Shown here: positions 3 through 20,833 of the stretch, piece after piece | Layout: each line of letters starts with the position of its first letter | Position numbering within the stretch: position 1 is the first letter of the stretch | Virus record (IMG/VR): IMGVR_UViG_3300011444_000022 | Span: 1 to 24,459 of that record | Source: a virus | Lineage: Duplodnaviria > Caudoviricetes | Length of the DNA stretch: 24,459 bases | Strand: one strand, 5' to 3' | Position numbers and translations under genes: made by a program | Notes under the pieces: generated by a model | Told to the model about the DNA's origin: nothing | The model's database searches: none | What the model saw: only the letters and a program-made list of their open reading frames with translations

Positions 3-1163
3 CGTCCCGGCGTCCTTCACCCCGCTATTGACGCTCGTGGCCGTCCCGGCGAGCTGCGCCACGTTGGTGGAGGCGTTGGCCGGTGGCGTGGTTGTGACCG
101 TGCCGCTCACCGGCACAGGGGTCGCCCGGAGCTGGGTGTCGGTCAGCGGGGCGATCTCGGCCCCGGCCTGGTTCCGTAAGTTGACGTGCAGCCCCGAGAG
201 CGGCGTCATCCGGAGCGAGGCGGCGCTGTTCTCGGTCACCGTCCGAGTCCCGGTGTCATCCACGGTCGCCGCGGCAATGCCAACCGAGGTCGTCCCGAAC
301 GTGAACGCGGCATTGTCGCTGAAGGCCGCGGCGCCACCGCAACCGGCATCACACTGAATATGGAGATTCGAGCCGGTCGGCTGCACGACGGTGAAGTTGC
401 CGGTTCCAGCGTTGGCGGTCACGGTCCCGGATACGGGTTGTGTCGCCTGCCAGAAGGTGCCTGACACGGGCTGTGTGGCCTGCCAGAACGTCCCGGACAC
501 CGGGAGCGCGGTCGCCCTGATCTGCGTGTCCGTGAGCGGTCCGGATACCGGCTGAGTGGCCTGCCAGAAGGTGCCGCTGACCGGCTGCGTGGCTTGCCAG
601 AACGTGCCACTCACAGGTTGTGTCGCCTGGAAAAAGGTGCCCGTGACTGGCGTGGACGGCATCGACGCAATCGAGACAGGTTGGGTCGCCTGAAAAAACG
701 TCCCGCTGACCGGCTGTGTCGCCTGCCAGAACGTCCCGGTGACGGCCAGGGACGCATTCTTGACGTTCACGAAGGCGCCATTCGTCGCATCGCCCTTCCA
801 GCGGTCCCAGGTCGTCCCGTTGAAGAGCATCCCGAAGCTGGCGGTCTGCGGAATGGTGGGATTCGCGGTCGCATCCGACATCGCAACCGCGGCCGCCGTG
901 CCGCAGCCCGAGTCGCAGATGATGTGTTGCGGGGCGAGGAAGTTGACCGCCCACGGGTCCATGCCGCTCGCGCCCTGATCGACCATACCGATCGTGACGT
1001 TGCCGCCCGCGCCCGCGCACGACTCAAAGGCGGTGCCGTCGATCGTGACGCACCGCACGGCAACCGCCGCGCCGGTGGCGGTATTGGTGACTTCCACCAC
1101 CTGTGCCGACACGCGCCCTGCCGAGGCGAGCAGCACGCCGATGAGTAATAGGCGTCGAATCAT
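3..1163 (-). CDS. Signal-peptide-bearing, repeat-rich fibre-like protein (3' partial, runs off window; absent from ORF track)
   Basis: Manual translation MIRRLLLIGVLLASAGRVSA-QVVEVTNT... is open to the window edge. ATG overlaps the upstream TGA (ATGA 1160-1163) and has GGAG upstream. Contains 7 GTF(W/F)QATQPVS repeats. Confidence 0.85.
   Translation of the reverse strand, partial: MIRRLLLIGVLLASAGRVSAQVVEVTNTATGAAVAVRCVTIDGTAFESCAGAGGNVTIGMVDQGASGMDPWAVNFLAPQHIICDSGCGTAAAVAMSDATANPTIPQTASFGMLFNGTTWDRWKGDATNGAFVNVKNASLAVTGTFWQATQPVSGTFFQATQPVSIASMPSTPVTGTFFQATQPVSGTFWQATQPVSGTFWQATQPVSGPLTDTQIRATALPVSGTFWQATQPVSGTFWQATQPVSGTVTANAGTGNFTVVQPTGSNLHIQCDAGCGGAAAFSDNAAFTFGTTSVGIAAATVDDTGTRTVTENSAASLRMTPLSGLHVNLRNQAGAEIAPLTDTQLRATPVPVSGTVTTTPPANASTNVAQLAGTATSVNSGVKDAGT
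424..742 (-). repeat. Coding 33-nt/11-aa repeats GTF(W/F)QATQPVS x7, interrupted
   Basis: Recurring (c)tgccagaa(c/g)gt / tgtgtcgcctg words on the + strand. Copies differ mostly at synonymous positions. Confidence 0.9.
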
Positions 1164-1465
1164 CTGCCGGCGTGTTCTCCCACAAGCTGCGCGGTGACCG
1201 CGTCAGGCGCCGTGGCTCCCCACTTCACGCCGTCCATCGTGACCCCGCCAAGCGGCACGAGTTGCGTCATGCGCGCCTGGAGGGGGTAGTCCTTCAACCG
1301 ATAGCCGCCCGTGCGATCCGTGACCGTCACGTATTGCGTGACGAGCGTGAGATTACAGAGCAGGAGATTCCGGGCCCGGATCACGTTCCTGGTCATTTCC
1401 TCCACGACGGCCGCCAGCGTCACGATCCCGCTGTCGTAATTGCCGTCGCCGAGGGTAATGGCCAC
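1160..1465 (-). CDS. Hypothetical phage protein (structural region)
   Basis: 101-aa ORF packed between neighbours, with its stop overlapping the next ATG. Confidence 0.7.
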   Translation of the reverse strand: MAITLGDGNYDSGIVTLAAVVEEMTRNVIRARNLLLCNLTLVTQYVTVTDRTGGYRLKDYPLQARMTQLVPLGGVTMDGVKWGATAPDAVTAQLVGEHAGR

Positions 1466-1468
1466 ACG

Positions 1469-1891
1469 TTAGGCCGGCTGTCGGGCTACGACGGTGCGGA
1501 CCTTCTCGGTCGTGGTCTGCAACGCGTCAAGGAGGGGTTGCGCCTTGGCGCAGGCGTCCGCGTGTCGCAGTCGCGCGACCCGAAGCGCCTCGTCGGCCTT
1601 CGCGAGCTCGGCGTCATAGGCGCTCGCCGCGGCGGTTCGAGCGGCCTCACACGCGCTCTGGGCGTGCGCGAGGCGTTTCTCCGCTGCGGCGATCACCGTG
1701 CTCCGGCGTTGGCTGGCCGCGCGCTGAACGTCGCGTTGGGCCTTCGCCTTCGCCGCCACGTCAGCCTCCGCGCGATCGACGGCCGCGACGGCCGGCCCGA
1801 GCTGCCCGATCACGTCGCCGAGTTTCGGCGGCGCGTCAGCCCGTGCCGCCGCCTTAGACGTCGTCGGGCGAGTCGACCCACTTCGGGCCAA
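1469..1891 (-). CDS. Ala-rich predicted coiled-coil protein
   Basis: Fills the gap on the coding strand with a helical Ala/Lys/Glu-rich sequence. Start codon uncertain. Confidence 0.6.
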   Translation of the reverse strand: MARSGSTRPTTSKAAARADAPPKLGDVIGQLGPAVAAVDRAEADVAAKAKAQRDVQRAASQRRSTVIAAAEKRLAHAQSACEAARTAAASAYDAELAKADEALRVARLRHADACAKAQPLLDALQTTTEKVRTVVARQPA

Positions 1892-2345
1892 GGGCAGCCT
1901 CCTCTTCCTCGTTGTAGACGCGCGTCACCTCCCATCCGTGCGGATGGCGATCAGAGATGGGCGCCTTGCGATACTTCGCCCGCGGCCAGTTCGGGTCGTG
2001 CACGCCTTCCCCGGCCTGCGTCATGGACACCTGTCGGCCGAGCGACACGGGCGCCGGCTTCAGGCGGTTCCCCACGCCCGACGCCTGCCGCATCTGCGCG
2101 CGAGAGCGGACCGGCACCACGCCCGATCGCGCCTTCCCCGCTGGCGCCGCTGGCGGTGGAGACGCAGCCGGCGTCAGCGACTCGTGATCCTTATCGCCGT
2201 CCCACCGGACCGCGGTGTTGTCCTCCGGCAGCGGAGGCGCGGGTTGCCGTGGCCGATGGAGTTTCCTCGGCAGGGGAACCATCGGCAGCGCCGGGTTGGG
2301 CGCAGTGTGCTTCGCGACGTGCTTCGCGGCTTTCTTCTTGGCCAT
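1854..2345 (-). CDS. Phage protein with basic/Pro-rich N-terminus and conserved-looking C-terminal domain
   Basis: AAAGGA SD upstream. The C-terminal WPRAKY...VYNEEEEAALGPKWVDSP resembles small proteins found downstream of P22-like coat genes (recalled). Confidence 0.7.
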   Translation of the reverse strand: MAKKKAAKHVAKHTAPNPALPMVPLPRKLHRPRQPAPPLPEDNTAVRWDGDKDHESLTPAASPPPAAPAGKARSGVVPVRSRAQMRQASGVGNRLKPAPVSLGRQVSMTQAGEGVHDPNWPRAKYRKAPISDRHPHGWEVTRVYNEEEEAALGPKWVDSPDDV

Positions 2346-2365
2346 GATGTGCAGTCCTTTCTCGA

Positions 2366-3175
2366 CTACTGAACCTTGATCACCGCGAAGTTGATGATGA
2401 TGGCGCCGGTTTCGGCCGTGCCCGCCGCCACGTTGTTGTCCGACACCCGGAGGGTGAATGAGCCGGCGGTGACGGTCGACACCGTCACGTCGGTGTTGCC
2501 GCTGTTACTGCCCGACCGGATGGAGGCTACGACGGTGTCGCCAATCGCCACCGACGCATCCGTGACGACGAAGGCCGCCGCCGCTTCCGCGGCCAGTGAG
2601 GTCGTGTCGGTCGTGATCGCGCCCGTGAGTCCCTGGCACGTCACGCCGGTGGCCCGGCTCGTGATTTGCGTCACGGCACACGACCGCTGGCCCAGCCCCA
2701 TATACGGGCCGGCCGTCCAGACGCCGTTGTAGCAGTAGAACGCCTTGCCGTTCTGCACATTCAGCACGGGATGGAACGCGGCGTTCTGGAGCGGGTCCGG
2801 TGGCGCCACCGAGCAGAGCCCCGCCTTGTCGTCGCGCGACATCTGCTGGTCGTTCGGCACGAAATAGACGATCGCGCCGCTCCGGTGGCCCGTGGCCGGG
2901 AGTCCGGGCGCGCGTCCACGCTGCACAGTGAGCGTGGTGCCGTTGATGGCGATGATCTTCATCACCTCGCGGTCCACGACCATCCAGCGTTCGTTGACGT
3001 TCGTCGACGCGGTAAAGCCGGTCGCGGACGTGATCGCCACCGTGGTGGCGGCGGCGTTGGCGACGGCCGCCGAGGTCGTCGTCGCGGTCAAAGCGGTCTG
3101 CGCGTGCAGGAGCGTCGGGAAGCCGAGCAGCACCAGCAGCAACAGCCCGCGGAGGAGTTTCGGCAGTCTGTTCAT
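2366..3175 (-). CDS. Putative head decoration/minor virion protein with signal peptide
   Basis: Directly after the coat gene. Preferred start MNRLPKLLRGLLLLVLLGFPTLLHA-QT (GGAG upstream; track start is 3211). The C-terminal VTQITSRATGVT...GAITT...AGSFT...INFAVIK resembles a recurrent phage structural domain. Confidence 0.75.
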   Translation of the reverse strand: MNRLPKLLRGLLLLVLLGFPTLLHAQTALTATTTSAAVANAAATTVAITSATGFTASTNVNERWMVVDREVMKIIAINGTTLTVQRGRAPGLPATGHRSGAIVYFVPNDQQMSRDDKAGLCSVAPPDPLQNAAFHPVLNVQNGKAFYCYNGVWTAGPYMGLGQRSCAVTQITSRATGVTCQGLTGAITTDTTSLAAEAAAAFVVTDASVAIGDTVVASIRSGSNSGNTDVTVSTVTAGSFTLRVSDNNVAAGTAETGAIIINFAVIKVQ

Positions 3176-3217
3176 GGTCCTCACATCTCCGTTGATGGTT
3201 GTGGTTGTCATTGCTGA

Positions 3218-4576
3218 TTACATGCAGACGCGGCAGGCGAGTTCCTGCCGAATCGCGCCCCAGCCGTGCGCCGTGTCGAGTCGCGCCGGGCTGACGTCGT
3301 TGATGATGTCGTGATCCTTGAGCATCCGGATCGAGACCCCGAGCTTCGCGTTCGAGATGCGCTCAGCGATCCAGAGTCCGCGGGGGAGCACGAGGTCCGC
3401 CATCACGCAGGCATACGCTTCCTTGTGATAGACGAGCCCCTGGCGCATCGAGATGTTGGCATACGCCGAGGCGTGGCCGAACGTCAGGATGGCGTCGTTG
3501 ACCGCCGGCACTTCGTCCACCGTGGCGAACGCGCCCGCGGGGATGAACGCCGGGGCCACGGTGATCGTGCCGGTGCCCGCGCCGTCACTCGGCGTGTCAC
3601 CCACAACCACGTAGTCCTTGTTGCGGTTCGTGGACTGGTGTGTGAGCGGATTGATGTCCTGCGCCGAGGCGAAGGCAATCGAGTCGCCGTCACGCCAATA
3701 CTGCGCAACGCTGGCGGTGGCGCCGGTGAAGGTGACCTGGTTCGCGCCGGGCGCCGGGGCCGCGGCGACGAGCGGCGTCGTGCCGAGCGCGCCGACCTTG
3801 TGCGTGGCGATATTCTCGTCCTCATACCACGCCTCGATGCCGAGCGCCGGCCCGCCGAACCGCCCTTTGCGGAAGTTCGCCGAGATCTGCGCGGACGGGT
3901 TGAAGAGCGCGAAGTTAGCCGAGGCCAGCTTCGTATGACCGTCCGCCGTCAGCACGGCGTTATACGGCCGCGGGACCGCCGCCTCGACGAGCTTGACCTT
4001 CGCCAAGCCGTAGACGTCATTCGCCGTCGCGCCGTTCGGCACCACGCCCGGCGTCCCGACGCACTTCGCGGTCTGCTTATACATGCGCGCCAGGCCGGTG
4101 TAGTCGATGTTGTTCACTAACTGATCGACCGCCGAGTTCCCGTAGCGCTCCATGTAGTCGTCGACAAACATCGTCGCCGCCCAAGAGTCATACTCGAACC
4201 CGATGTTGCTCTGGTCGGTGATCTGGAGCTGCACGGTCTGGTCGGTCAGCGGCGTCGGGTTCATCACCGCGCCGATGGTGACCTCGTAGCGCTGGGGCAG
4301 GCGGAGCGTGACGGTGTCACCCATCTTGACGCCCTTCTGCTTGTATTCGTCGTCGTAGTCGCGCATCACCGTGCCGGTGAAGACGCAATTGTTCGTCAGG
4401 CGGCGCGCCATCTTGCGCATCACCCACTGCGGGGTGGCGAAGGTGTTGCCGAGGAGCAGCCCCGTGCCGTGCAAACCGGCATGGAACAACAGGGTGAGCG
4501 CGTGATCGAGTGCGATCCCGATGGCCACGCCAATCAGGGCGAGCACTGTCACGCGGAGGTAGTCACGAAACGTCAT
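3218..4576 (-). CDS. Major capsid protein, P22 coat protein (gp5) family, with hydrophobic N-terminal extension
   Basis: Motifs RDYDDEY...KMGDTVTLRLP, GLVYHKEAYACVMADL and RLDTAHGWGAIRQE; located after the scaffold; GGGAG SD before ATG 4576. Confidence 0.92.
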   Translation of the reverse strand: MTFRDYLRVTVLALIGVAIGIALDHALTLLFHAGLHGTGLLLGNTFATPQWVMRKMARRLTNNCVFTGTVMRDYDDEYKQKGVKMGDTVTLRLPQRYEVTIGAVMNPTPLTDQTVQLQITDQSNIGFEYDSWAATMFVDDYMERYGNSAVDQLVNNIDYTGLARMYKQTAKCVGTPGVVPNGATANDVYGLAKVKLVEAAVPRPYNAVLTADGHTKLASANFALFNPSAQISANFRKGRFGGPALGIEAWYEDENIATHKVGALGTTPLVAAAPAPGANQVTFTGATASVAQYWRDGDSIAFASAQDINPLTHQSTNRNKDYVVVGDTPSDGAGTGTITVAPAFIPAGAFATVDEVPAVNDAILTFGHASAYANISMRQGLVYHKEAYACVMADLVLPRGLWIAERISNAKLGVSIRMLKDHDIINDVSPARLDTAHGWGAIRQELACRVCM

Positions 4577-4619
4577 GGCTCAGACTCCCGAGCCCGCGCA
4601 CCAGCGTGTGGAGTGGAGT
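4577..4619 (-). promoter_or_regulatory. RBS-sequestering hairpin and anti-SD repeats before the coat gene
   Basis: mRNA reads GGCUCGG-GAGU-CUGAGCC-AUG (7-bp stem with one GU). Upstream ACUCCACUCC is complementary to GGAGU. Confidence 0.45.
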
Positions 4620-4622
4620 GCT

Positions 4623-6056
4623 TTAGACGGCGACGCCGGCGTCTCTGAGACGCTCTTTGCGCTCGCGCTCATCTTCGGCCGCCATCCAGTCGTCAAACGA
4701 CTGTCCTGGGGCTGCACCACTCCCGCCGGTGTCTGTGCGGGCATCTGGCGATCCTGCCTGTGGCCGGGCAGAGGGTCGCGCTTTGGTGACAGGATGAACG
4801 ACCGCGCCTGGTCCACTTGGTGCAGGCTGGAGCCGTGTATGGAGGGCGCCGATCGCCTGCATCATGGCGACCGGGTGCATCCGCTTCAACGCCTCGAACT
4901 CCTCAGCACCGTCGTCAGTCGCGAAGTGCTCGAGCAGAGGGATGATGGAAGCAGACGGAGTGTGGACGAGCGCATCCCGTAAGGGACGAGTGGGCAGGAG
5001 ATCTGCGAGCCGCTGCGCGCGATCGAGATCTGCGCCAAGCCAGTAGAGAATTTCACCGCCGGCCTTGTCGCCGGCCATCAGACGTGAGCGGGTGAGGTCA
5101 TTCAGGAACGGCGTGCGTTCCTCGCCACACGTCTTCGGGTCATACCAAGCCGACGTGAGATCTTTGAGCGCCGCGGCCTTTTCGTTCCAGTCCGCCTTGC
5201 TGGTCCGGACGGCGTCGACCGTCTGACCCAGACGCGCGACGGCGGCGGTCTGTTGGGCGCGCTGCTCTTCGGTCGTGAACCGCGATTCGATGCCTTCGGA
5301 GAGCTCCTGGCGCATCGCATCCATGCGGCGCTGTTGCCACGCGGCGTGATCGGTGCGCCACTTGCCGGCGGCCTCTTCATACGCCTCGTCGGTGTCGAAG
5401 TCGCGATACTTCGGGTGCTCAGGCTCGGCGCCGGGCTCGATCTTCGCCTTGCCGTCCTTCCCCGTGGCGGACGTCGCCGCGGCGGCGGGCTTCACATCGG
5501 CCGCGCCCTGCCCGGCTTTCGCGTCACGGACCTGCCGCTGCACGTCCTCAAGCTCGCGTCTCGCCGCCGTCAGTTCGCGGCGGGCGCGATCGGTTTCTGC
5601 GGCTGTCGTGTGCTTGGTGTGGGTGAGGGTGTCGACTTCCCTCTTTAGTTCAGTGACACGTTGCGTGAGCGGCTTGTTCGGCTTCTTCCCGCCGGCGGCC
5701 GTCGTCGCGGCAGTCTGTTTCCCTTTGTCAGGTGACGCGGCGGGCTTATTGTGAGTTGGCTGCTGCCCTTCGGCCTTCTCGCGCGTATCGCCCGTCGCGT
5801 CTCCCTGATCGTTCAGCCCGGCGGTGCTCGCACTGACCTCACCCGTGTCGGCGACCGCGACAGCCTCGTCACCATCGACGTCACCCTCGGCCGCCACGTC
5901 CAGACCGGCTGTGGTGTCGCCTGGCGCTGGCGTGAACGCCACCGACGCGGATTCCACCGCGAAGTCGGCATCAGGCTCCTCGCCTCCCCCACCACCGCCA
6001 GCCGCATCAGCCGGGGCATAGAACAGTGTGGAGGCGAAGGCGGGCCAGAACTTCAT
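4623..6056 (-). CDS. Putative scaffolding protein
   Basis: Lies between portal and coat. Acidic disordered N-terminus, coiled coil, the P.Y.DFDTDEAYEEA..KW motif and C-terminal SFDDWMA..ER, typical of P22-like podophage scaffolds. Confidence 0.8.
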   Translation of the reverse strand: MKFWPAFASTLFYAPADAAGGGGGGEEPDADFAVESASVAFTPAPGDTTAGLDVAAEGDVDGDEAVAVADTGEVSASTAGLNDQGDATGDTREKAEGQQPTHNKPAASPDKGKQTAATTAAGGKKPNKPLTQRVTELKREVDTLTHTKHTTAAETDRARRELTAARRELEDVQRQVRDAKAGQGAADVKPAAAATSATGKDGKAKIEPGAEPEHPKYRDFDTDEAYEEAAGKWRTDHAAWQQRRMDAMRQELSEGIESRFTTEEQRAQQTAAVARLGQTVDAVRTSKADWNEKAAALKDLTSAWYDPKTCGEERTPFLNDLTRSRLMAGDKAGGEILYWLGADLDRAQRLADLLPTRPLRDALVHTPSASIIPLLEHFATDDGAEEFEALKRMHPVAMMQAIGALHTRLQPAPSGPGAVVHPVTKARPSARPQAGSPDARTDTGGSGAAPGQSFDDWMAAEDERERKERLRDAGVAV

Positions 6057-6072
6057 AGATGGTGACTACTCC

Positions 6073-6119
6073 AAAAGAAAAAGGCGTAGTCCGGCGGCTG
6101 GTGCCACTGGTCTACGCCT
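6073..6119 (-). terminator. Intrinsic terminator-like hairpin immediately before the scaffold RBS
   Basis: AGGCGUAGACCAGUGGC-ACCA-GCCGCCGGACUACGCCU followed by UUUUCUUUU. Confidence 0.7.
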
Positions 6120-6168
6120 CGGGTTCAATCCTCGTAAGCGAGACGACTAAGAAATGATGTGTCGGCCG

Positions 6169-6197
6169 ATAATACGCCCGGATCACCCAAACTGCAA
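6169..6197 (-). promoter_or_regulatory. Sigma70-like promoter
   Basis: TTGCAG-17 nt-TATTAT in the largest intergenic gap of a GC-rich sequence. Confidence 0.65.
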
Positions 6198-6202
6198 TAG
6201 GC

Positions 6203-6565
6203 TCAGGTCCGAATAGGCCAACTGAACGTGCCGGGCTGGTCACCCACGTTTCGCGACGTCGCCCAGAACACATCGTTACCGTCAAGGAACACTTGACCGT
6301 TGACGGCGCTCTCTGCGGACGGTCCACACACGCGCACGATCAACATCGGGTAGGTATCACCCTCATTCACTTCGTTACCGATGTGCGCCTGTGCGCCAAT
6401 GGGCCACGCGGTGCCCTTTATCCGCTCGGCGATGCTCTTGCCTGTCGTTCGACGGCGGTTGATCTGTGTGGCGTCATCGGCGCTCAGTCGGTAGTGAACA
6501 ATGCGACCCATCGACGGAATCTCGCTCATCTGCGTCTCCTTGAAAAGCGTTCTGTTCCTACTCAC
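6203..6565 (-). CDS. Conserved hypothetical phage protein
   Basis: PSMGRIVHY...PMLIVRV...VNGQVFLDGND..W..S...PGTFSWP pattern, recalled from many phages. ATGA overlap with the portal stop; an alternative start lies at MSEIP. Confidence 0.8.
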   Translation of the reverse strand: MSRNRTLFKETQMSEIPSMGRIVHYRLSADDATQINRRRTTGKSIAERIKGTAWPIGAQAHIGNEVNEGDTYPMLIVRVCGPSAESAVNGQVFLDGNDVFWATSRNVGDQPGTFSWPIRT

Positions 6566-9321
6566 TCATCCTCATCCGTGTCCAGCTTCTGCTGACGGCC
6601 AAACTCCCGCTCCGCCGCTGTGTCGTCGCGCTCGGCTTGGCGGTCGGCGGAGGCTTCGCCGCGTTCGTGCTCGAGCGCGGCGGAGGATTCGTCTCGGACG
6701 TGCTGACGGCCGGCGTTGACGTCGGATCGGACGTCCTTCGTGGTCGACGAGACTTCCTTCCGGGCATCGGCCCTGGTCGCTGCGGCCTCCCCGCGGGCAT
6801 CCGCTCGGAGCGCCGACGCTTCGCCGCGCGCGTCGGCGCTGCGGGACTGGAGTTCCTTGCGCACATCGCCCGCGGTCGCTGAGAGGTCCGCACGCTCCGC
6901 CGCTTTGGCCGCCGCGGCGTCGTGGAGCGCCACCGAATGCCGTTCCTGTTCCTTCGCGCCGAGCTCTTTGAGCAGTTGCAGCGTGTAGGCTTCGTTCTCT
7001 TTCATGCGCTGGAGGAGCACTTCATGCTGCTGCTCGGACTCCTGCTGCATGGCGGCGATCCGCCCGCGCAAGACCTCGAGCTGCTGGTCGGCGCTGTTGC
7101 TGGCGCGCACTTCGAGCATCTTCCCCTGCGCCTTGATCTGCTCGAGCCGACCCTGCACGGCCGCCTTGATCATCGCGATATCTTTCTGGCCGGCCGTCTT
7201 CATCGCGTCCGAGTCGAGCATCTTCTGCGCTTCCTGAAGCGCCTGCATCGCCTGCTGGTGCTCGTGCTTGAGGCGCACGAACCGGCCCATCAGCGAGGGC
7301 GGAATGTCCTGCATGTCGTCGTCGCCTTCGGGCATCCGGCTCTTGATGCGGTCGGCGATTTCATTGGCCCCGCTGAACCCCATCGAGCGCACCCAGAGAT
7401 CCGCGTAACTCGGCACGAGCTCCGGCGCGGACTTGGCGAGCGCTTCCATGCCGGCGAGCGCCTCCTCCTGGCGCGCGTTGAAGCTGCGATCGATGGCCGA
7501 TACCGCCTTGAACTCGCCTTCCGTGAAATCGACAAATTCAACCGGCTTCCCCTGCCACTCCGGCGGCATGTTCTCCTTGGTCGCCTGTTTGTTGCCATGA
7601 CACGCGGGGCACGCCTGGAGCTGATAGAACTCCATGATGCCGCTGCGCACTTCGCCCGCGCCTTTACAGGTGGGACACGCGACGGGAATGGGCGTGCCTT
7701 CATGGTCGAGGATGAACGGCACTTTCAGGAGGATCGCCGTCTCGTCCTCATGGTCCTCACCCGCGATCCGCAGGACGCGCCCCGGCTTGTCGTAGTAGTG
7801 CGGGATGGCGTCGAGCAGCACTTTGCCCTCGTAGAGCATCGCAATCGTCGCCATGTTGTCGAGGTAATTGCTCGTTCCGGCGGACCCTTGGCGCTGCAAG
7901 GCTTCGATCGCCTTCCCGCTACGGTCGTAGGGGTTCACCGCGCGCATCTGCGGCGCCACAGAGCCCGTGACCGCGTGAAACATCTCGTGCATCATCCGCA
8001 GTAGGAGCAGGAGCCCGTTCACCTGGAGCTCGGTTTGTTGCCGCTGCGGCGGCGGCGCGGGCTTCCCCTCGATGTCGACCACCTTGTATTCGAGCCGCAT
8101 GTAGTTCTTGACGGCCGCGAGATCCCACTCGTCCTCGTGCCCCTCGAACTGCCCTTCGGCGCCGACGTAGGGCGTGCGCGGCATCGTTCCGGCGAGCTCG
8201 GTCGCGCTCGAGATGATGACGTTGATCGCCCGCAGTAACTCGACGGCGTTCGCGATGATGCCCTTGAAGCGCCGCTTGCCGCGGATGAAATACTCCTTCC
8301 CGATCGTCTCAATGACCGGGATGTATTGCCCGTGCCACGGGTGCTCTTCGAGCACTTGCGTGCCGTCCACGACGTAAATCTGCACCGTCTTGTGATCCAC
8401 CTCGCGCGTGAGCGCACCTTCGGCCTTCCCCGCAAGGGCCGCGGCGACCGCCGCCGGCATCACCGGCAGGAGCGAGCCTTCGGGCGCTTTGCCGATCCAG
8501 CCGTTCCCGAACGTCGGGGAATAGCCGAGCGTGAAGGTCTGGTGCATCACTTTGTAGTAGGTGGCGATGCGGCACCGCTTCTGGTCGGGCTTCTCCTGGC
8601 TGGCCGCAAACCAGTTATCGTCGGGCGTCCATCCGCCTTCGGGTTGCACGAGCGGCTTGGTCTTCCAGCGCCGCTTGCGTTCCTTTTCGCTGATCCAGTC
8701 GGTGACGAGGCACCAGTCCGCGTCGGAGTTGTCCGCGCGCTGCCGATACGGGTCCCAATACACCGTCGAGTAGTCGAGGATGCGGTTCTCGCGAAGCTCG
8801 AGGTCGAAATCCCCATCGTTGGCGTAGAGCGCTTCAATCAGCCAGCCGCCGCGCCCGACCTTGGCGGCGCGCTCGAGGCCCCAGAGCCGCACTTCGAGCG
8901 ACCCGCTCTCGACCTGAATCGTCCGCACGAGCCCTTTGAGGTATTCCGCGGTCCCTTTCGTCGCTAAGCCGTTGCGTGGCTTGACGGTCAGCGACAGCCG
9001 CGCCTGCCGGGCCTCGGAGACGACCTGTTGGATGTTCTGATCGAGCAGGTTGACCGAGATGGTTGGTTTGGCGGGGATGGTGCGGCCGGTCGTGTCGTCC
9101 GCTTGCTCGCCTCGGGCGTCACGGGCCATCTGGCCCCACATATCGTCTTCAAATTCGAGTTCGTCCTTCTCGGCCTTGCGCTGGACGTCCTCGTAGGCGA
9201 TGGCGAAGTCGAGATTGTCGCGGATCTCCTGGAGCAGCTCCTCGGCCCGCGCTTCCTCTGGCGGCTTGGGTGTCTCTTTGAGTTGCCCGCCGGATTCTTC
9301 CTGATAGCCTTCGCCGTCCAT
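6562..9321 (-). CDS. Portal protein, P22-like, with Zn-finger insertion and long C-terminal coiled coil
   Basis: Motifs KPTISVNLL, VYWDP, PWHGQYIPVI and SGKAI.ALQ.QG. Start placed at ATG 9321 (AGGAG 7 nt upstream) rather than the track's 9354. Confidence 0.9.
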   Translation of the reverse strand: MDGEGYQEESGGQLKETPKPPEEARAEELLQEIRDNLDFAIAYEDVQRKAEKDELEFEDDMWGQMARDARGEQADDTTGRTIPAKPTISVNLLDQNIQQVVSEARQARLSLTVKPRNGLATKGTAEYLKGLVRTIQVESGSLEVRLWGLERAAKVGRGGWLIEALYANDGDFDLELRENRILDYSTVYWDPYRQRADNSDADWCLVTDWISEKERKRRWKTKPLVQPEGGWTPDDNWFAASQEKPDQKRCRIATYYKVMHQTFTLGYSPTFGNGWIGKAPEGSLLPVMPAAVAAALAGKAEGALTREVDHKTVQIYVVDGTQVLEEHPWHGQYIPVIETIGKEYFIRGKRRFKGIIANAVELLRAINVIISSATELAGTMPRTPYVGAEGQFEGHEDEWDLAAVKNYMRLEYKVVDIEGKPAPPPQRQQTELQVNGLLLLLRMMHEMFHAVTGSVAPQMRAVNPYDRSGKAIEALQRQGSAGTSNYLDNMATIAMLYEGKVLLDAIPHYYDKPGRVLRIAGEDHEDETAILLKVPFILDHEGTPIPVACPTCKGAGEVRSGIMEFYQLQACPACHGNKQATKENMPPEWQGKPVEFVDFTEGEFKAVSAIDRSFNARQEEALAGMEALAKSAPELVPSYADLWVRSMGFSGANEIADRIKSRMPEGDDDMQDIPPSLMGRFVRLKHEHQQAMQALQEAQKMLDSDAMKTAGQKDIAMIKAAVQGRLEQIKAQGKMLEVRASNSADQQLEVLRGRIAAMQQESEQQHEVLLQRMKENEAYTLQLLKELGAKEQERHSVALHDAAAAKAAERADLSATAGDVRKELQSRSADARGEASALRADARGEAAATRADARKEVSSTTKDVRSDVNAGRQHVRDESSAALEHERGEASADRQAERDDTAAEREFGRQQKLDTDEDE

Positions 9322-9322
9322 C

Positions 9323-9427
9323 TTACGACTCCTGAACTCTCGCCTCGTGCCCACACTTCGGACAGAACCGCTGATCGGGACGGATTATCACATCGCAGCA
9401 TTCGGTCTTGGCGTCCTGCGGCGTCAT
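9323..9427 (-). CDS. 34-aa zinc-ribbon microprotein (not in ORF track)
   Basis: MTPQDAKTECCDVIIRPDQRFCPKCGHEARVQES exactly fills the gap between the DUF3008-like gene and the portal. Confidence 0.65.
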   Translation of the reverse strand: MTPQDAKTECCDVIIRPDQRFCPKCGHEARVQES

Positions 9428-9429
9428 GG

Positions 9430-9615
9430 CTAGCGACGTCCCTTCTTCGGCTTCCTGACGTGTCGTGGGAGCCCTTTCTCAGGGGTGGAGGCGAAGTGCG
9501 CCATATCGGCGAGGTTCATCGTCAACACGCTGCGGTTCCGCGCGCTCACTTGGTCAGGGTGGTGCTCGGCGAGTCCCATCAACTTCCGCTGCGCTTTCGA
9601 GACGGCGGGCATCAC
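9430..9615 (-). CDS. DUF3008-like small basic protein
   Basis: MPAVSKAQRKLMG...FASTPEKGLP matches the recalled DUF3008 pattern; AAGGAG SD. Confidence 0.75.
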   Translation of the reverse strand: MMPAVSKAQRKLMGLAEHHPDQVSARNRSVLTMNLADMAHFASTPEKGLPRHVRKPKKGRR

Positions 9616-9624
9616 GTCGCTCCT

Positions 9625-10125
9625 TTACTGTGGACGTGGCGGCGTCTTCTGCCAGTAGGAGCTGAACACATCACGCCCTTTCCGCACACGCGCGGACCCG
9701 TGGTAGTGCCGCTCCATCGCTTCCTGGGACCCGGCGATCTCCACCTCCCAGGCGTCCTCGACTTCCTTCTCGAAGGCGGCCTGCGACTGCGGGCTTTCGA
9801 CGTGCACCGTGTCGAGGAAGGTGAAGGCGTTTTCGTTCGGGTAGCGCGCCCGCCAGGCGTGAACCGCAAAGCCGTAGATGGAGTTCGCGACATGGTCGGC
9901 GTCGCCGCGGTTGTTTCCCCAGAACGCGCCCATCTCGTGGAGGAACACGCGCCGGAAGTGCCCTTCGCCGCTCGCCACCGCATACGCGTGGCCGAGTTTG
10001 TCGGCGAGCATGTCGACGAGGATCTGACGGATGTTCTGTTTGACGAGGATCGCCACATCCGCGCGCAGGTTGATCAGCGTCTCCGGCGGCGTCACCACGT
10101 CTGGTGGAAGGATCATGGGACTCAC
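9625..10125 (-). CDS. Hypothetical protein
   Basis: GTGA overlap with the upstream stop; protein-like composition. Confidence 0.7.
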   Translation of the reverse strand: MSPMILPPDVVTPPETLINLRADVAILVKQNIRQILVDMLADKLGHAYAVASGEGHFRRVFLHEMGAFWGNNRGDADHVANSIYGFAVHAWRARYPNENAFTFLDTVHVESPQSQAAFEKEVEDAWEVEIAGSQEAMERHYHGSARVRKGRDVFSSYWQKTPPRPQ

Positions 10126-10499
10126 GCCATCAACTCGGAAGCGTTCGCCGGCTCGCTAGTCTCCGCTGCTTCGTTGTCCGCCGGCGCCTGCTGGCCGCCG
10201 AACGCCTGCGTCACGTAGCCGATCACCTCCTGCAACGTCCCGAAGGCGAGCTCTTCGCTCTTGTAGTCGTTCCCTGGGCTCGGCCCGTTTCTGGAGGGTG
10301 CCGCCTCTTTGCTGTGCGAGCAGCGGACGATGAATCCGCCGTTGTCGGCCTGCTTGATGGTGACGTCCTGCGTCTTCCAGCCGTCTCCCATGCCCGCCGT
10401 CGCTTGCGGCGCTTGGGCCTGGTAGGCCGGGTCCATCATGCGGGAGGCGCTCTGCTCGTCGGCCATCATCGAGCCGCGCATCTGTTGCTGACTGGCCAT
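10122..10499 (-). CDS. Hypothetical protein
   Basis: GAGGAG SD; core VTIKQADNGGFIVRC with low-complexity flanks. Confidence 0.75.
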   Translation of the reverse strand: MASQQQMRGSMMADEQSASRMMDPAYQAQAPQATAGMGDGWKTQDVTIKQADNGGFIVRCSHSKEAAPSRNGPSPGNDYKSEELAFGTLQEVIGYVTQAFGGQQAPADNEAAETSEPANASELMA

Positions 10500-10527
10500 G
10501 TGCTGGAACTCCTCAACGGTGTTGCTG

Positions 10528-10737
10528 TTACGCGGATGATTCTACGCCTCTTACCGTCTCGGCTAAAACTTTCTGATACGCCGGGCTGCTCGTGTTTGGC
10601 TCCGGCAGGGTGTCGTCGAGATAGGCTGCTTCGACGATGACCTGTCCGAACACCTGGCCCTTGCGGAACCGAATCCGGACTTCCCCATAAAACTCCGTGG
10701 CGGCCAACCCGATCAGGAACCGAATGAGCCTCCCCAT
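10528..10737 (-). CDS. Small protein, DUF2292/YezD-like
   Basis: FYGEVRIRFRKGQV motif; starts 1 nt after the upstream stop. Confidence 0.6.
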   Translation of the reverse strand: MGRLIRFLIGLAATEFYGEVRIRFRKGQVFGQVIVEAAYLDDTLPEPNTSSPAYQKVLAETVRGVESSA

Positions 10738-10738
10738 A

Positions 10739-11047
10739 TCAGTGCAGCGCCGGCTGAATCAGGGCCGGACGGGGATTCTCTTTCGCCGCGTCGATGGTCA
10801 ACTCGTCGGCCTCCTCCGCCTTCATCATCTTGATGTTGACGCGCGGGATGGTCACGAGCGCCGCTGGGCACTTCGTCACCTGGCCGCCGCTCGGCGCCCG
10901 GACGTCGGCGAGGATCGCTGAGCTCTCGAGCCACAGGCCGGCCCGCCAGAGCCCCGCGTGGATGCCCTTCGCCTTCACGAGCGCGATCGCGACCTCGCGC
11001 CATTCGAAGTGGATGTGATCTTGGATCTTGCCGAACGGGTTAGCCAC
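10739..11047 (-). CDS. Hypothetical protein
   Basis: Coupled to both neighbours; EVAIALVKAKGIHAGLW...LTIDAAKENP looks like a globular domain. Confidence 0.7.
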   Translation of the reverse strand: MANPFGKIQDHIHFEWREVAIALVKAKGIHAGLWRAGLWLESSAILADVRAPSGGQVTKCPAALVTIPRVNIKMMKAEEADELTIDAAKENPRPALIQPALH

Positions 11048-11312
11048 GCTGCTTCGCCCACTGCGTCACGATTTGTTTGCCGTCTGACCGAATCTCGAAA
11101 CTCTCCACCATGCTCGGCGAAACCACACCGTCATTCTCACGCACACGCGCCAATAGAATCGCCGGGGACTCGATCAACTCAATGCCCGTGAAGATGTCGC
11201 GCATGCGCCGACGCTGTAGGGTCGGTCCGTCTCCGGTCTTGACGCGGTAGAGCCCAATTTCCGCCGTCTGGAGCTCCTCCATCGTCGCGAGCGGAATATC
11301 CGCCATCACCAT
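11040..11312 (-). CDS. Hypothetical protein
   Basis: GAGGAGGAG SD; overlaps the downstream start. Confidence 0.65.
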   Translation of the reverse strand: MVMADIPLATMEELQTAEIGLYRVKTGDGPTLQRRRMRDIFTGIELIESPAILLARVRENDGVVSPSMVESFEIRSDGKQIVTQWAKQRG

Positions 11313-11485
11313 CGTCGCTCCTCCTCTCGGTCGTCCTGGTCATCAAGCACCGGATCGGGCATCTTGCCGGTCTTCACCCACGTCCGATAACACGTCGTGC
11401 AGAGATACGCGTTCGCCAGCGTGCGAAAGCGGGCGCCCTCATCGAGCCGGCAGGCGTCACAGTGCTTCTGGTGCTTCTTGGCCAC
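11306..11485 (-). CDS. 59-aa C4 zinc-finger microprotein (not in ORF track)
   Basis: GTG start; MAKKHQKHCDACRLDEGARFRTLANAYLCTTCYRTWVKTGKMPD... fills the gap. Confidence 0.6.
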   Translation of the reverse strand: MAKKHQKHCDACRLDEGARFRTLANAYLCTTCYRTWVKTGKMPDPVLDDQDDREEERRW

Positions 11486-11494
11486 AGTCTTCCG

Positions 11495-12814
11495 TCATCG
11501 CCTCCGGAGCCCTTGCCGGGCGTGTGAGATGGTGCCGCCGTTCCCGCCGGCGACGAGCCGTTCATACGCGCCTGCATCGTAGGCGCTGCCTTGTGGGCGC
11601 GCGACGACGCCGAGTATATCGGTCGCCACAGCGCCGACCGGGGTGCCGAAGTCGATGGCCTGGCTCCCGATCGCCAGCGTGTAGTCGTGGGCGCCTTGGT
11701 TTGTGAACCCACCGCTGCCGGTCGTGACGTTGTTGCTCCCGGTCGCGCTGCACGCATTATCGAAATTTGAACCGACGTTGCTAACGAGAAGATTGTTGGT
11801 GACCGTCGGCGCGGTCGCGGATTCGCAGAAGATCCCCTTCCCCGAGTTGTCAACAATGGTGTTGTTGTAAATGCCGAGGCCCGTGCCCGTGATGCCGACA
11901 TACACACCCGCCGAGATACTCCCCGCCGTGCTGGCGGGCACGCCATAGATAATGTTGTTCGCGATTAGGTTGTTCGTCCCGGCGTTGTAGACCGTAATGC
12001 CGGAATGCCGATCGCTTGGAATCGCAGGCGTGGCGCGTAAGTCGCGGATGATGTTCCTGGTGATAACGGTGTTGTTGATCGTGTTCCCGTAGCCGTTGTA
12101 CAGCTGAATCCCACCAGGGGCGTCGTAGATCGTGTTGCCGTCGAGCGTGTTGTCGGCTGACTGGAGGTAGATGCCCCAATCAGGCAGATCGCCGGCGCTC
12201 TCGCCGCAGGCGTGGATGGTGTTATTGAGAATTTGGTTAAAGCCCGTCGTCCCGGCGCCCGCGCTCACGAGCTGGATGCAGGCTCCATCAAATGTCGTCG
12301 TGTTGCCGATGATCTCGGAGTTCTGGATACGAATGTGACTCGGTGTCTGGTTAGAGGGCGCGATTGTATAGGCTTCGATCTTGATGGTGTTGACCGTCAC
12401 CAGCGACCCATCAATGATGAAGCCGTCGATCTCGATATACGCCTGCGTGCCGGCGAAGTTGAAGACGAACTCACCCGACTGCGGGAAGATGCGCACGGTT
12501 TCGGACGGATACGCCGCAATGCGATACTTGCCGGTCGTGAAATTAGTCCCCGTGAGCGGCGGATCGAGGATGGCTTCCTGATAGGTTCCACCCCGAACCA
12601 GCACCTCGTCTCCCGGTGCGCCAGCGATGAGACAGGCTACGCCAGCATTGATCGTGAGTTTGGGCGTCGTAATCGTCTGCGCCGTCGCGCACGACCTGGC
12701 GTTGTCACCGCTTGGTGTGCCGCCAGCGCCTTGGCTGACGTAATAGGTCGCGGCCCATGATGGTGCCGCGATGAGCCACCACGCAAGTGTCAGAATGCCG
12801 AGCGGCGTCCTCAT
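11495..12814 (-). CDS. Secreted right-handed parallel beta-helix protein (pectin-lyase-like fold)
   Basis: Signal peptide ending APSWA-ATYYVS; PGDEVLVRGGTYQE; repeated I.NN.I. strands; C-terminal S.AID.G...RPQGSAYDAGAYE. Confidence 0.88.
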   Translation of the reverse strand: MRTPLGILTLAWWLIAAPSWAATYYVSQGAGGTPSGDNARSCATAQTITTPKLTINAGVACLIAGAPGDEVLVRGGTYQEAILDPPLTGTNFTTGKYRIAAYPSETVRIFPQSGEFVFNFAGTQAYIEIDGFIIDGSLVTVNTIKIEAYTIAPSNQTPSHIRIQNSEIIGNTTTFDGACIQLVSAGAGTTGFNQILNNTIHACGESAGDLPDWGIYLQSADNTLDGNTIYDAPGGIQLYNGYGNTINNTVITRNIIRDLRATPAIPSDRHSGITVYNAGTNNLIANNIIYGVPASTAGSISAGVYVGITGTGLGIYNNTIVDNSGKGIFCESATAPTVTNNLLVSNVGSNFDNACSATGSNNVTTGSGGFTNQGAHDYTLAIGSQAIDFGTPVGAVATDILGVVARPQGSAYDAGAYERLVAGGNGGTISHARQGLRRR

Positions 12815-13545
12815 CGCCCGGCTCCGAGCAGGACGCCAAGCCCAGGCGCCACACCTCCACCGCCGGTGGCTTCCACAAACAGAATCGCCAACCCATGCGC
12901 AGAATCACTCGCACTTGTCGTCCACGGTGGCTTCTCCGCAGAGAACGTCCCAATCTTTCGCTCGAGCATGTAGCCAACCGCGGTGAGTGTATTGTCAGAC
13001 GTGTAGCCAGAGCCCAACGTCACGTCGACTAATGAATTATTAGCGCCCAGCCCGATGATCATTCCCGTGCCAGTCAGGCCCGTCGTGGCTGCTGTATGAG
13101 ACGTGCCTGAATCGCCAGTATTGGTATCCGTTAGTAGCGACGCCGAAGTGTCATGTCCTCGGATATGGAGCCACGTCGCCGAATAGTGCGACACGCCATC
13201 GGTGCACGTCAAATTAACCGTCGTCAAGCCGGCCGAGACGTTGCGCTTGTCGAAGACCCACGTATCTGAGCCTTCAGTAATTGCCGCTGCGCCCCATGAT
13301 CCGTTGACGGTATCGGCCATCGAGAAGGTGCCCGTGCCGTCCGTGCGCACAATGCCGACAACGTAGGTGTCGCCAGCCGAGCCGGTAAACGTCGTGCTGT
13401 CGGCGACGTTGGCCCGGTCGTTGGTAACGTCGTGGGCGACTTCAGTGACCGCCGCGTGAAGGATGACCTCGAGCGGTTGGACGAGAAAGACGATTAGGGC
13501 CAGCGCGGTCACCGCCACTCGGCCGAGTCTCAAGTGTTTACGCAT
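12811..13545 (-). CDS. Secreted Thr/Gly/Ser-rich beta-strand protein
   Basis: Basic-hydrophobic leader ending VILHA-AVT; starts 1 nt after the terL stop; ATGA overlap with the next gene. Confidence 0.8.
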   Translation of the reverse strand: MRKHLRLGRVAVTALALIVFLVQPLEVILHAAVTEVAHDVTNDRANVADSTTFTGSAGDTYVVGIVRTDGTGTFSMADTVNGSWGAAAITEGSDTWVFDKRNVSAGLTTVNLTCTDGVSHYSATWLHIRGHDTSASLLTDTNTGDSGTSHTAATTGLTGTGMIIGLGANNSLVDVTLGSGYTSDNTLTAVGYMLERKIGTFSAEKPPWTTSASDSAHGLAILFVEATGGGGVAPGLGVLLGAGR

Positions 13546-13546
13546 G

Positions 13547-15073
13547 TCAGTGCGTCCATCCCAGGTGATTGCCGCCGGCGCCGCGGTCAGCGAACCGCTG
13601 GCGTGGCCCCTTGCGCTTGAGCGGTCGCTTCGGCGGGGCGATGGGACTGGCGAACGTCAGCGCCAGGGCGTCGGCATCATCAGGGCTCGCCACGCCGCGG
13701 TCGGCCATGTCCTCTTTGCTCTCCAGCACGAGCTGATCCTTCTTGTTCAAGTGCGAGCCTGGCGCCCCGAGGTCGTCGGTCATCCGCTGCTCGTCCTCGA
13801 TCGCCCCGTAGAGGAGCCATTCCTTCATCCTCGACCACATGTAGGCCCGCATGTTGTGACAATGCTTCTCGTCCGGGTTCAGGGTTTGGCCGAAGGTCAC
13901 TTCATGGACGTTCGCATAGCCCATCGACTTGAGCCGCTCGACGTAGGGTGAGCCGAACGCCGAATCGCAGAACATCGCGTGCACCTTGAGCTCTGGCTTG
14001 CGCTCGGCGAGCAGGCCCGCCAGGATGGCGAGGAAGGCCGAGCGGTCACCCCGCGTCTGCTCCCCTGGAATCCGAATCGGGGGGATCGAGACGGCGTCGA
14101 GCCCGCGGCGGAACCGGACGACGTTCCACGACTGCCCACCCCCTGAGAAGTCTACACCCACGATCAACGGGTCGTCGTCGAAGCTCGCTGGCTCACGCCG
14201 CGCCGCCTCGAGGATGCGGTCCATCGGGATGAACTGGAGGTCTGAGGCCCGTGGCGGCAGTCCCTTGACGCGCACCCGGAAGAAGTCGGAATCCTCGCCG
14301 TGCTGCTCGAGCCACCGGGCGATGAGCACCTTGTTCGAGAAGCGGACGGTCCGACTGTCGACAATCAACGGCTTCCAATAGTCGCGGTCCTTGCCGAAAC
14401 ACGCCTCGTAGAAACTCCCACTGTTTCGGGTCGCGTTGCCGAAGCGAAATTGCATCGGCTCGCCGTCCGTCATGCCACCTTCCGCGACGGTGTGGATAAT
14501 CTCCGCAATGCTGCTGTCCTCGTCGAAGATGTAATACGAGGTCGAGTCGGCCGCGTGCTGGCCGGCGAACGCTTCACTGTTCTCTGAACGACACGTCTGC
14601 GCCGAGCAGAACCAGCTTTCCGGGAACGATGGGTGATAGAGCCGTTGAGTGTTGACCTTGAACATGCGCCCAAACACACACATCTTGGTCCACCGTCGCA
14701 CGCTCGCCCAGGTCTTCGTCTCAAGCTGCGTGTTCGTGTTGGCGGTGACGACGCCCTGCGAGTGCGGCCGGGTCGAGCTGATCCAATTGACCAGCATCGC
14801 CGCCATGACCGAGCCGCCGACCCCGTGCCCTTTACTCACGGCCCGGAGGATCGGCATCACCGGCGTGTGGCCGTCAAAGGCGTTGCTGCGCACCTCGTCC
14901 GACACCGAGCGGGCGAATGTCCGCTGCCAGGCGTCAGGTCCGGGATGATGCTCGAGCAGCGTGCCGGGCTCGCCCCACGGGTAAGCGAGGTCGATGAAAC
15001 GCTCAAGGTCGCCGACGCAGTTCTCGGTGATGTCGGAGAGGTCGCCGTCTGGGAGTTCGGCGAGGTCTGGCAC
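13547..15073 (-). CDS. terL: Terminase large subunit
   Basis: ATPase domain (SKGHGVGGS, YYIFDE, FGNATRNSGSFY) and nuclease domain (VGVDFSGGG, SPDDADALALTF); follows terS. Confidence 0.95.
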   Translation of the reverse strand: MPDLAELPDGDLSDITENCVGDLERFIDLAYPWGEPGTLLEHHPGPDAWQRTFARSVSDEVRSNAFDGHTPVMPILRAVSKGHGVGGSVMAAMLVNWISSTRPHSQGVVTANTNTQLETKTWASVRRWTKMCVFGRMFKVNTQRLYHPSFPESWFCSAQTCRSENSEAFAGQHAADSTSYYIFDEDSSIAEIIHTVAEGGMTDGEPMQFRFGNATRNSGSFYEACFGKDRDYWKPLIVDSRTVRFSNKVLIARWLEQHGEDSDFFRVRVKGLPPRASDLQFIPMDRILEAARREPASFDDDPLIVGVDFSGGGQSWNVVRFRRGLDAVSIPPIRIPGEQTRGDRSAFLAILAGLLAERKPELKVHAMFCDSAFGSPYVERLKSMGYANVHEVTFGQTLNPDEKHCHNMRAYMWSRMKEWLLYGAIEDEQRMTDDLGAPGSHLNKKDQLVLESKEDMADRGVASPDDADALALTFASPIAPPKRPLKRKGPRQRFADRGAGGNHLGWTH

Positions 15074-17717: not shown

Positions 17718-17908
17718 CGGCCGTCCTTCCTCTCCACGATCCCTGCGAGACGCCTTGTGGGCCTCGGCACCTTGCCGCTCACGCGCAGCACGCCAGACTC
17801 CCGATCCGCTGCGGCCTGGTAGACCGCTTCGGCCACGAGGACTCGGCGGCTGTAGTCGGTCAGATCAATGAACTCGTCGGCCTCTGGTCGACGCCACCAC
17901 GGTTTCAC
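17714..17908 (-). CDS. Hypothetical protein
   Basis: GTGA overlap with the ATPase stop gives MKPWWRRPEADEF... Confidence 0.55.
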   Translation of the reverse strand: MKPWWRRPEADEFIDLTDYSRRVLVAEAVYQAAADRESGVLRVSGKVPRPTRRLAGIVERKDGR

Positions 17909-20741: not shown

Positions 20742-20833
20742 CACATCCCTCCATGCAGCACAAGTAGCCACCCGATACACGTCCCGGCGATCAGGCCGAG
20801 AAACACGCACTCAACGATGTCGTCGATGTTCAT
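20741..20833 (-). CDS. 30-aa single-TM microprotein (not in ORF track)
   Basis: [30 protein letters not shown]; ATGA overlap upstream and TGATG overlap downstream. Confidence 0.55.

Follow-up and report, generated by a model that had tools for sequence, protein, structure and literature searches.

Predicted export signals on accessory virion-region proteins of a P22-like phage suggest a candidate periplasmic route to the virion surface

Where is the outer surface of a tailed phage made? To our knowledge, assembly of the whole particle in the cytoplasm is assumed for tailed phages, and phage genes with export signals are put down as host-surface or lysis factors. The virus contig IMGVR_UViG_3300011444_000022, analysed over its entire 24,459 bases and called the window below, raises the question anew: on its minus strand lies the late region of a P22-like phage in which five proteins, the coat and four accessory proteins, begin with hydrophobic leaders. 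A sequence-only reading of this DNA had proposed export of such proteins and a virion assembly routed through the periplasm. The account that we favour, with moderate confidence, is narrower: the core of the particle would be assembled in the cytoplasm, and accessory surface proteins would be exported, oxidised and added to particles at lysis.

Five leaders in a P22-like late region

The leadered genes of the window are the following (lengths in amino acids, aa).

12811..13545, minus strand: Ser/Thr-rich protein of 244 aa from a virus-associated family; 31-aa predicted signal peptide (13453..13545)
11495..12814, minus strand: right-handed beta-helix protein of 439 aa (PF13229 E 2e-12; NF041518 E 3e-10); 21-aa predicted signal peptide (12752..12814)
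4448..4576, minus strand: coat leader of 43 aa, with a basic start, a long hydrophobic helix, a polar loop and a G-hydrophobic x3-(A/G/S) junction
3218..4447, minus strand: P22-type coat body (PF11651 E 1e-24, phrog_283; best Foldseek matches Sf6, CUS-3 and P22)
2366..3175, minus strand: post-coat protein of 269 aa, with a 25-aa predicted signal peptide (3101..3175), an N-terminal beta-barrel, a C-terminal H-type-lectin-like domain and two cysteine pairs
3..1163, minus strand: fibre-like protein rich in repeats, truncated at the contig end; predicted signal peptide of 20 aa (1104..1163)

The four accessory leaders described by the sequence-only reading are all present at these coordinates, with the leader ends that it gave (SWA-A in 11495..12814, LHA-A in 12811..13545, LHA-Q in 2366..3175 and VSA-Q in 3..1163), and so is the hydrophobic leader that it noted on the coat, which occupies the first 43 residues of 3218..4576, the PF11651 match beginning at residue 44. 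A Shine-Dalgarno-like motif accompanies four of the five leadered starts, the fifth (13545) lying one base behind the stop codon of the terminase large subunit (TerL), and two leadered starts overlap the upstream stop codon (ATGA). No ATG, GTG or TTG within the first 62 codons has such a motif behind the leaders; with no supported start codon behind any of the five, a true start behind the leaders is rejected for this window.

Signals were called throughout with a heuristic of our own, which flags exactly these five among the 36 called window genes, against 10 of 496 pseudo N-termini cut from the interiors of other window proteins (binomial p 7e-4). By this heuristic the accessory leaders have a basic n-region, an uncharged h-region, small residues at −3 and −1 and no internal start. 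Under a strict n/h/c test three of them pass; the leader of 11495..12814 fails, passing only by family support and by a hydrophobicity threshold that was chosen after the data had been seen. Contigs from other runs read through two of the leaders with zero differing letters, that of the coat in X3 and X5 and that of the post-coat protein in X3, so these leaders are not an assembly artefact. From their sequence, the accessory leaders very probably direct export and are cleaved by signal peptidase I.

The core genes of the same region, listed here with the remaining genes behind the coat, carry no leader.

15074..15712, minus strand: terminase small subunit (PF03592 E 2e-24, phrog_51), without leader
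13547..15073, minus strand: TerL (phrog_2 E 6e-25; maximum KD19 0.88), without leader or transmembrane segment
6562..9321, minus strand: P22-like portal (PF16510 E 3e-97), without leader
4623..6056, minus strand: scaffold protein (phrog_8865 E 2e-8), without signal peptide
1854..2345, 1469..1891 and 1160..1465, minus strand: three small leaderless slot genes, the C-terminal part of the first being conserved in relatives

The late genes follow in the order terminase small and large subunits, two leadered genes, small open reading frames (ORFs), portal, scaffold and coat, and then a downstream slot with the leadered post-coat gene, three small genes and the leadered repeat protein. The contig stops within this last gene (3..1163), which places the tail and lysis genes beyond the window; relatives have there an adaptor and a gp10-like tail hub (phrog_578 E 8e-91, PF11134). 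Coat and portal are both of the P22 type by the PF11651 and PF16510 matches above and by a Foldseek match of the coat to Sf6 (E 3e-24). With P22, Sf6 and CUS-3 (coat PF11651, portal PF16510, tail hub PF11134) the window shares the terminase-portal-scaffold-coat order and the coat fold, and its relatives share the adaptor and gp10-like hub; unlike them, the window coat has a 43-aa hydrophobic leader and the relatives carry 1 to 14 genes, many of them leadered, between coat and adaptor. The phage is a P22-like member with a new, putative export branch.

Export signals, cysteine pairs and glycosylation in the post-coat slot

Related loci were compared using our own gene calls, genes of fewer than 70 residues being dropped and rows with identical first 50 residues collapsed. 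In 19 loci with a leadered post-coat gene, the counts of signal-bearing genes are 16/19 for the first gene after the coat (an inserted ORF in some loci), 19/39 for the other slot genes, 0/43 from the adaptor onward and 4/82 upstream. For loci whose post-coat gene is leaderless, the corresponding counts are 0/33, 5/54, 0/75 and 4/157. No adaptor (0/57) or tail-hub protein (0/55) has a leader in any locus, and none of the portal, scaffold and TerL proteins examined has a signal. By our heuristic, the leaders are conserved and confined to accessory virion-type genes; the sequence-only reading had asked for a check of their conservation and of their enrichment in structural modules. Among 55 leadered slot proteins, 23 match tail or head PHROGs and one weakly matches an Rz-like spanin family; another two have at their ends a Peptidase_S74 chaperone, a domain characteristic of trimeric fibres. 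The residue following the predicted cut is Gln in 46 of the 55, at a position where the heuristic itself favours Q, A, E or D. At one locus (L002:10899-13327) two adjacent leadered proteins have almost identical mature N-termini and each ends in a Peptidase_S74 tail-fibre chaperone. Endonuclease-like inserted ORFs recur between the coat and post-coat genes or near the coat start (L010:11277-12083, L088, L002, L023, L082).

Further evidence on virion identity comes from the post-coat protein. After removal of one mis-called row, its family comprises 72 rows, 27 with and 45 without a leader, that share slot and N-terminal domain; in 70 of the 72 it is the first or second gene past the coat. In the model of the window protein (mean pLDDT 84.5), the five best structure matches of the N-domain are all virion chains (Z 9.6-10.3), among them VP1 capsid 9in6_M (Z 10.3, 2.1 A, 77 residues), the JBD30 and Chi tail tips and GP4 8jov_1; the sources of these best matches are one capsid chain, tail-tip proteins and a tail tube, and none is labelled cement. 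A profile search likewise leads to the tail-tip proteins of Chi and JBD30. At E 0.001 or better, the post-coat model has 107 matches among viral models. The tblastn search of GenBank phages with the leadered or leaderless forms gave no match, so no cultured model was found. Podophage cement, decoration and head-spike proteins (phi24B gp67, Xacm4-11 gp26, GP4) resemble the post-coat gene in adjoining the capsid gene, and a solved podophage is described, in the accessible text, with its cement gene immediately downstream of the capsid gene (10.64898/2026.02.16.706137). They are also alike in combining a small beta-domain with a distal lectin-like domain, predicted here from a model, and in a likely late binding to the shell. 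They differ in that the accessible parts of these reports mention no export signal for them; in those on phi24B, the signal-bearing Lom and Bor are treated as contaminants. A complex prediction of the coat body with the post-coat N-domain scored 0.00, which is no answer and counts neither for nor against binding. The post-coat protein is a candidate head decoration or spike, and we think it probable that at least this accessory protein binds the head.

The sequence-only reading had also pointed out that three of the four accessory proteins have cysteines that could pair, which agrees with our counts: six in 3..1163, four in 2366..3175 and six in 11495..12814, and one in 12811..13545. Among homologues, these cysteines track the leader. 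In the C-domain of the post-coat protein, 26 of 30 leadered homologues have both cysteines, against 1 of 90 leaderless ones; the model places these cysteines on successive strands (140-144 and 152-154 of the mature chain). Mature slot proteins have even, odd or zero cysteines in 53, 2 and 1 cases when leadered (n=56) against 47, 65 and 67 when leaderless, counted on rows that are related by descent and not independent. An odd count is seen in 14 of 55 leadered proteins over the entire chain and in 2 when the leader is taken away, so the spare cysteine sits in the cut-off part. The repeat-fibre family of 3..1163, which has both forms, shows a median of 7 cysteines in 7 leadered rows against 1 in 42 leaderless rows. 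Air oxidation would not tie cysteine pairs to the leader.

Further indications come from a gene pair of the relatives. Right behind the leadered genes of six non-redundant loci (L024, L080, L081, L082, L083, L092) lie a small TPR-like gene and a multi-pass membrane gene (L024:2565-4012, L092:6226-7571, L082:3595-4952, L083:2761-4088). A search of viral contigs by the membrane-gene family alone returned nine loci, seven of them new (L244-L250), and all seven have the gene in the post-coat slot behind a leadered post-coat gene, although their coats are only 22-33% identical to that of the window. In six of the seven, the coat is followed by a leadered Ser/Thr-rich post-coat protein that has exactly two cysteines, then by the TPR gene and the membrane gene; in L249 the leader starts at an internal GTG that the heuristic had missed. 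In each of the 13 non-redundant loci, the pair belongs to the structural module and follows a leadered post-coat gene. The membrane protein (2,093 relatives, 3-7 predicted membrane segments) has an acidic (Y)ED motif following its first helix, within the first outer loop, that is invariant or nearly so in 70 homologues; from its sequence we read it as a putative GT-C-like glycosyltransferase, which we take to resemble the TMTC enzymes. GT-C enzymes work on the outer face of the membrane. No GT-C-like gene was seen in the window. Where relatives have the gene, O-glycosylation by the phage enzyme is a proposal that we hold neither as probable nor as improbable.

In the account that we favour, leaderless terminase, portal and scaffold would construct the head and fill it with DNA in the usual place, the cytoplasm. 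Accessory surface proteins would be exported through Sec signals, cleaved by signal peptidase I, given disulfides by a Dsb-type system in the periplasm and stored there as mature proteins, apart from the heads; in relatives with the GT-C gene, the phage enzyme would glycosylate them. The break of the inner membrane at lysis would mix the compartments, and the accessory proteins would then bind finished heads or tails. In vitro, lambda gpD and phage L Dec attach to heads that are already complete, and decoration proteins and the P22 tailspike can be added to finished particles. What stands of the sequence-only reading is therefore the export, oxidative folding and late addition of accessory proteins, which is the best reading of leaders that are conserved, confined to accessory genes and accompanied by a disulfide signature. 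Its title of periplasm-routed virion assembly is not supported for the particle as a whole: scaffold, portal, TerL, adaptors and tail hubs are leaderless, and the leadered coats show no cysteine pairing.

The accessory proteins might instead be exported and never become part of the virion, ex-virion modules being reused at or outside the host cell as receptor-masking lectins, superinfection blockers, decoys or lysis-released depolymerases, and the GT-C enzyme modifying the host surface, as P22 GtrC does; we regard this as rather unlikely. It applies above all to the beta-helix gene 11495..12814, which carries a choice-of-anchor Q domain and whose family is leadered in 94 of 120 homologues and resembles cellular secreted proteins, with one named match from Nitrospira. 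This protein is a candidate spike or secreted depolymerase and the least certain virion part of the accessory set. The lectin-like C-domain of the post-coat protein and the weak spanin match of one slot protein fit effectors as well, and the slot of one Vicinamibacterales prophage (L004) has no such leadered genes, which makes them dispensable. Against such a role, the post-coat gene lies directly behind the coat gene on the same strand and shares its slot and N-domain with leaderless orthologues, several leadered proteins belong to tail-fibre families or end in S74 chaperones, and in 13 loci a leadered, Ser/Thr-rich protein precedes the GT-C gene within the structural module. As to the other two accessory proteins, 12811..13545 has nearest ESM Atlas clusters that are 91-95% viral (feature score 0.96) and no homologue among the viral contigs and GenBank phages searched, and 3..1163 has seven QATQPVS-type repeats, two CxxxC motifs and 507 matching stretches in viral contigs. 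A Pfam and NCBIfam search gave no match for three of the four accessory proteins.

A second alternative keeps the proteins inside: the leaders would hold them at the cytoplasmic face of the inner membrane or be clipped in the cytoplasm, and disulfides would form in air after lysis. The coat leader probably works as such a non-translocating anchor, and the accessory signals were called with our heuristic only. Moreover, virion disulfides are described for Milano, Q-beta and PD491P1, in the accessible text without any reported export and as possibly spontaneous (PMC13576161), and similarly for crAss001 (accessible text of PMC10172136). Spontaneous oxidation, however, leaves unexplained both the cysteine pairs that track the leader and the odd cysteine inside it, and the n/h/c build of the accessory leaders is an ordinary one, small residues standing at −3 and −1; we consider this alternative improbable.

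The coat leader as a separate trait

The coat leader differs from the accessory signals. It is modelled as one helix (residues 3-34) followed by a low-confidence linker, and it lacks the short signal-peptidase spacing, with a median of 16 residues from the hydrophobic window to a conserved Asn. Among 94 database coats in which the N-arm can be recognised, a leader of 30-85 residues precedes it in 65, and 29 begin at the N-arm; the window coat does not begin there, its 43-aa leader having no start codon at the junction. The leaders vary in sequence around a common plan of basic start, hydrophobic helix, acidic loop (in most relatives) and G-hydrophobic x3-(A/G/S) junction. Net charge is positive before the helix in 58 of 65 and negative after it in 57 of 65, and a small residue stands at −1 of the conserved Asn in 58 of 65, the leaders ending L-x-(A/G/S). 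A cut at the junction would leave the same N-terminus as in leaderless relatives, and all 40 GenBank phage coat matches align only from residue 44 or later. Four database coats (P0007, P0010, P0031, P0044) have leaders of 82-85 residues, at least three of them with two hydrophobic segments split by a basic loop, the polarity of the last segment being unchanged.

Two other readings of the leader were rejected. A dual or internal start finds no start codon at the junction here or in most leadered loci, a Met lying nearby in 2 of 65 database coats. A transmembrane hairpin finds no adequate second segment, the coat body reaching a maximum KD19 of 1.33 and the post-loop segment, with KD 0.55, being modelled as a loop. 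A 92-row tree shows 12 changes of the trait, against a mean of 25 and a minimum of 18 with shuffled labels, and places leaderless rows within groups of leadered ones; the leaderless coat of L081 has a stop codon just upstream, and in some other leaderless database entries the start may have been called wrongly. The coat leader is a trait of its own and dispensable, conserved yet repeatedly lost. Its most likely role, at about even odds, is that of a removable anchor: it would tether the nascent coat to the inner membrane and be cut off at the G-hydrophobic x3-(A/G/S)-N junction, which would give the leaderless-type N-terminus. Oxidation of the coat is rejected, as leadered coats show no parity signal (30 even, 33 odd), and we conclude that the coat body remains cytoplasmic alongside scaffold and portal.

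That the coat is exported too, with a shell assembled in the periplasm or extruded through the membrane, is very improbable: the N-in/C-out polarity of the leader, its L-x-(A/G/S) end before the conserved Asn and the start codon mostly missing at the junction in the leadered loci examined would suit it, but no signal was called on scaffold, portal, terminase, adaptor or tail hub, the cysteines of leadered coats give no sign of pairing, nested leaderless coats are hardly compatible with a change of compartment, and DNA packaging requires cytoplasmic DNA and ATP.

Weight of the evidence, host and comparison with known systems

Several points weigh against late addition of exported proteins as set out above, besides the shared descent of the cysteine rows and the resemblance of the beta-helix family to cellular proteins. 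For the second post-coat cysteine pair (26 of 27 leadered rows, 0 of 45 leaderless ones) the comparison is uneven, since most leaderless proteins have a different second domain. On the poorly resolved post-coat tree, the leader changes 13 times and the cysteine pair 9 times; in the tree-corrected test three of four independent pairs agree and none oppose (p 0.25), which is underpowered. The post-coat gene is leadered in 10 of 10 loci with the GT-C-like enzyme and 7 of 30 without it among loci scored for both traits (raw p 2e-5), of which tree correction leaves only three independent pairs (p 0.5). The GT-C assignment rests on PMT_2 matches in 5 of 70 family members (best E 1e-5), and a comparison with solved structures in the PDB gave no match. 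Beta-barrels of the N-domain type are also found in ATPases and translation factors at Z 6-7, and the C-domain match to H-type lectins and tailspike ends, at Z 7.7, is within the range of common arrangements. By the positive-inside rule, the coat leader would send the coat body outward, with no second spanning segment to return it; this is the main unexplained point. Coupling of the coat leader to the post-coat signal was also rejected: 13 cases have both, 32 neither and 6 and 3 are mixed in the raw counts, which tend toward coupling, and since the tree test shows nothing, we treat the two as separate traits.

The coat family was matched at five genome loci, the nearest being a leadered coat (53% identity) in a Vicinamibacterales chromosome and a second leadered coat lying in an Acidobacteria assembly; of the loci L240-L242, only L241 was read on the coding strand, and it is leaderless. 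Only 5 of 401 genomes of the host class searched have a coat relative, a count that includes one unpublished genome (G385), which is used for no other result. The host is likely a member of the Vicinamibacterales (Acidobacteriota), judging from one relative. Two RNA runs contain only 0.06 of the window's words.

Among known systems, M13 pVIII and pIII are virion proteins with signal peptides that are processed by the host peptidase, with an acidic loop after the leader; the likeness lies in signal peptides, predicted here, and in that loop. Unlike here, M13 proteins stay membrane-anchored and the particle is extruded, whereas the accessory proteins are predicted to be soluble when mature, on an HK97-fold tailed virion, and an M13-type second transmembrane segment is absent from the mature coat of the window. 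The HK97 delta domain, T4 gp23/gp20 and the 80alpha Prp site exemplify protease-removed capsid leaders or membrane-bound head assembly, similar to what is proposed here in the removal of an N-terminal piece before or during head maturation and in assembly at the inner membrane; they differ in that their leaders are not transmembrane-like, and no prohead protease was found among 27 window ORFs. Rotavirus VP7, an outer capsid protein that, in the accessible text, has a signal peptide, is made in another compartment and is added late (PMC13043047), is an analogy only, the pathway being that of the eukaryotic ER and the proteins unrelated. In the literature searched, passages of mostly open-access main texts, no tailed-phage virion protein with an export signal was found; signal-peptide tables, such as those of 10.1101/2020.10.09.334284, could bear on this. 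Hydrophobic leaders exist on some capsid proteins of Bacteroidota phages, a subject on which the search gave no paper.

Other features of the window can be noted. The terminase-portal interval (9430-11485) holds small genes with no family match, several with by-eye counterparts in L001, L004, L010, L013 and L097, and a leader-cutting or membrane-assembly factor might be sought there. Inserted in the portal is a pair of CxxC motifs at residues 549-574 (from the 9321 start; window 7600-7680) with a weak DnaJ zinc-finger match (E 5e-4), and the scaffold N-terminus (6000-6056) has a short aromatic-rich extension followed by a glycine run, similar in L080 and absent from most relatives. The early region encodes a HerA/DUF87-type ATPase (17905-19602), an HNH endonuclease (20830-21420), an MT-A70 methyltransferase (21417-22451) and a Holliday junction resolvase (23245-23733).

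In its widest form, a second, periplasmic production line for the decoration, fibre and spike proteins of the virion surface in a widespread P22-like group, glycosylated in some lineages and with the coat made from a membrane-anchored precursor, is a possibility that we put forward as doubtful. Under the all-cytoplasmic assumption, signal-bearing phage genes get dropped from virion models; leadered and leaderless orthologues in one slot make a direct test possible. If true, some tailed phages would use the secretion, disulfide and glycosylation machinery of the host for their outer surface and finish assembly during lysis, in parallel with eukaryotic viruses that assemble across compartments. 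This would account for ordered disulfides in some phage virion proteins, a question left open in the accessible text of PMC13576161, and would predict glycosylated virions in diderm hosts, with a simple sequence marker to find them.

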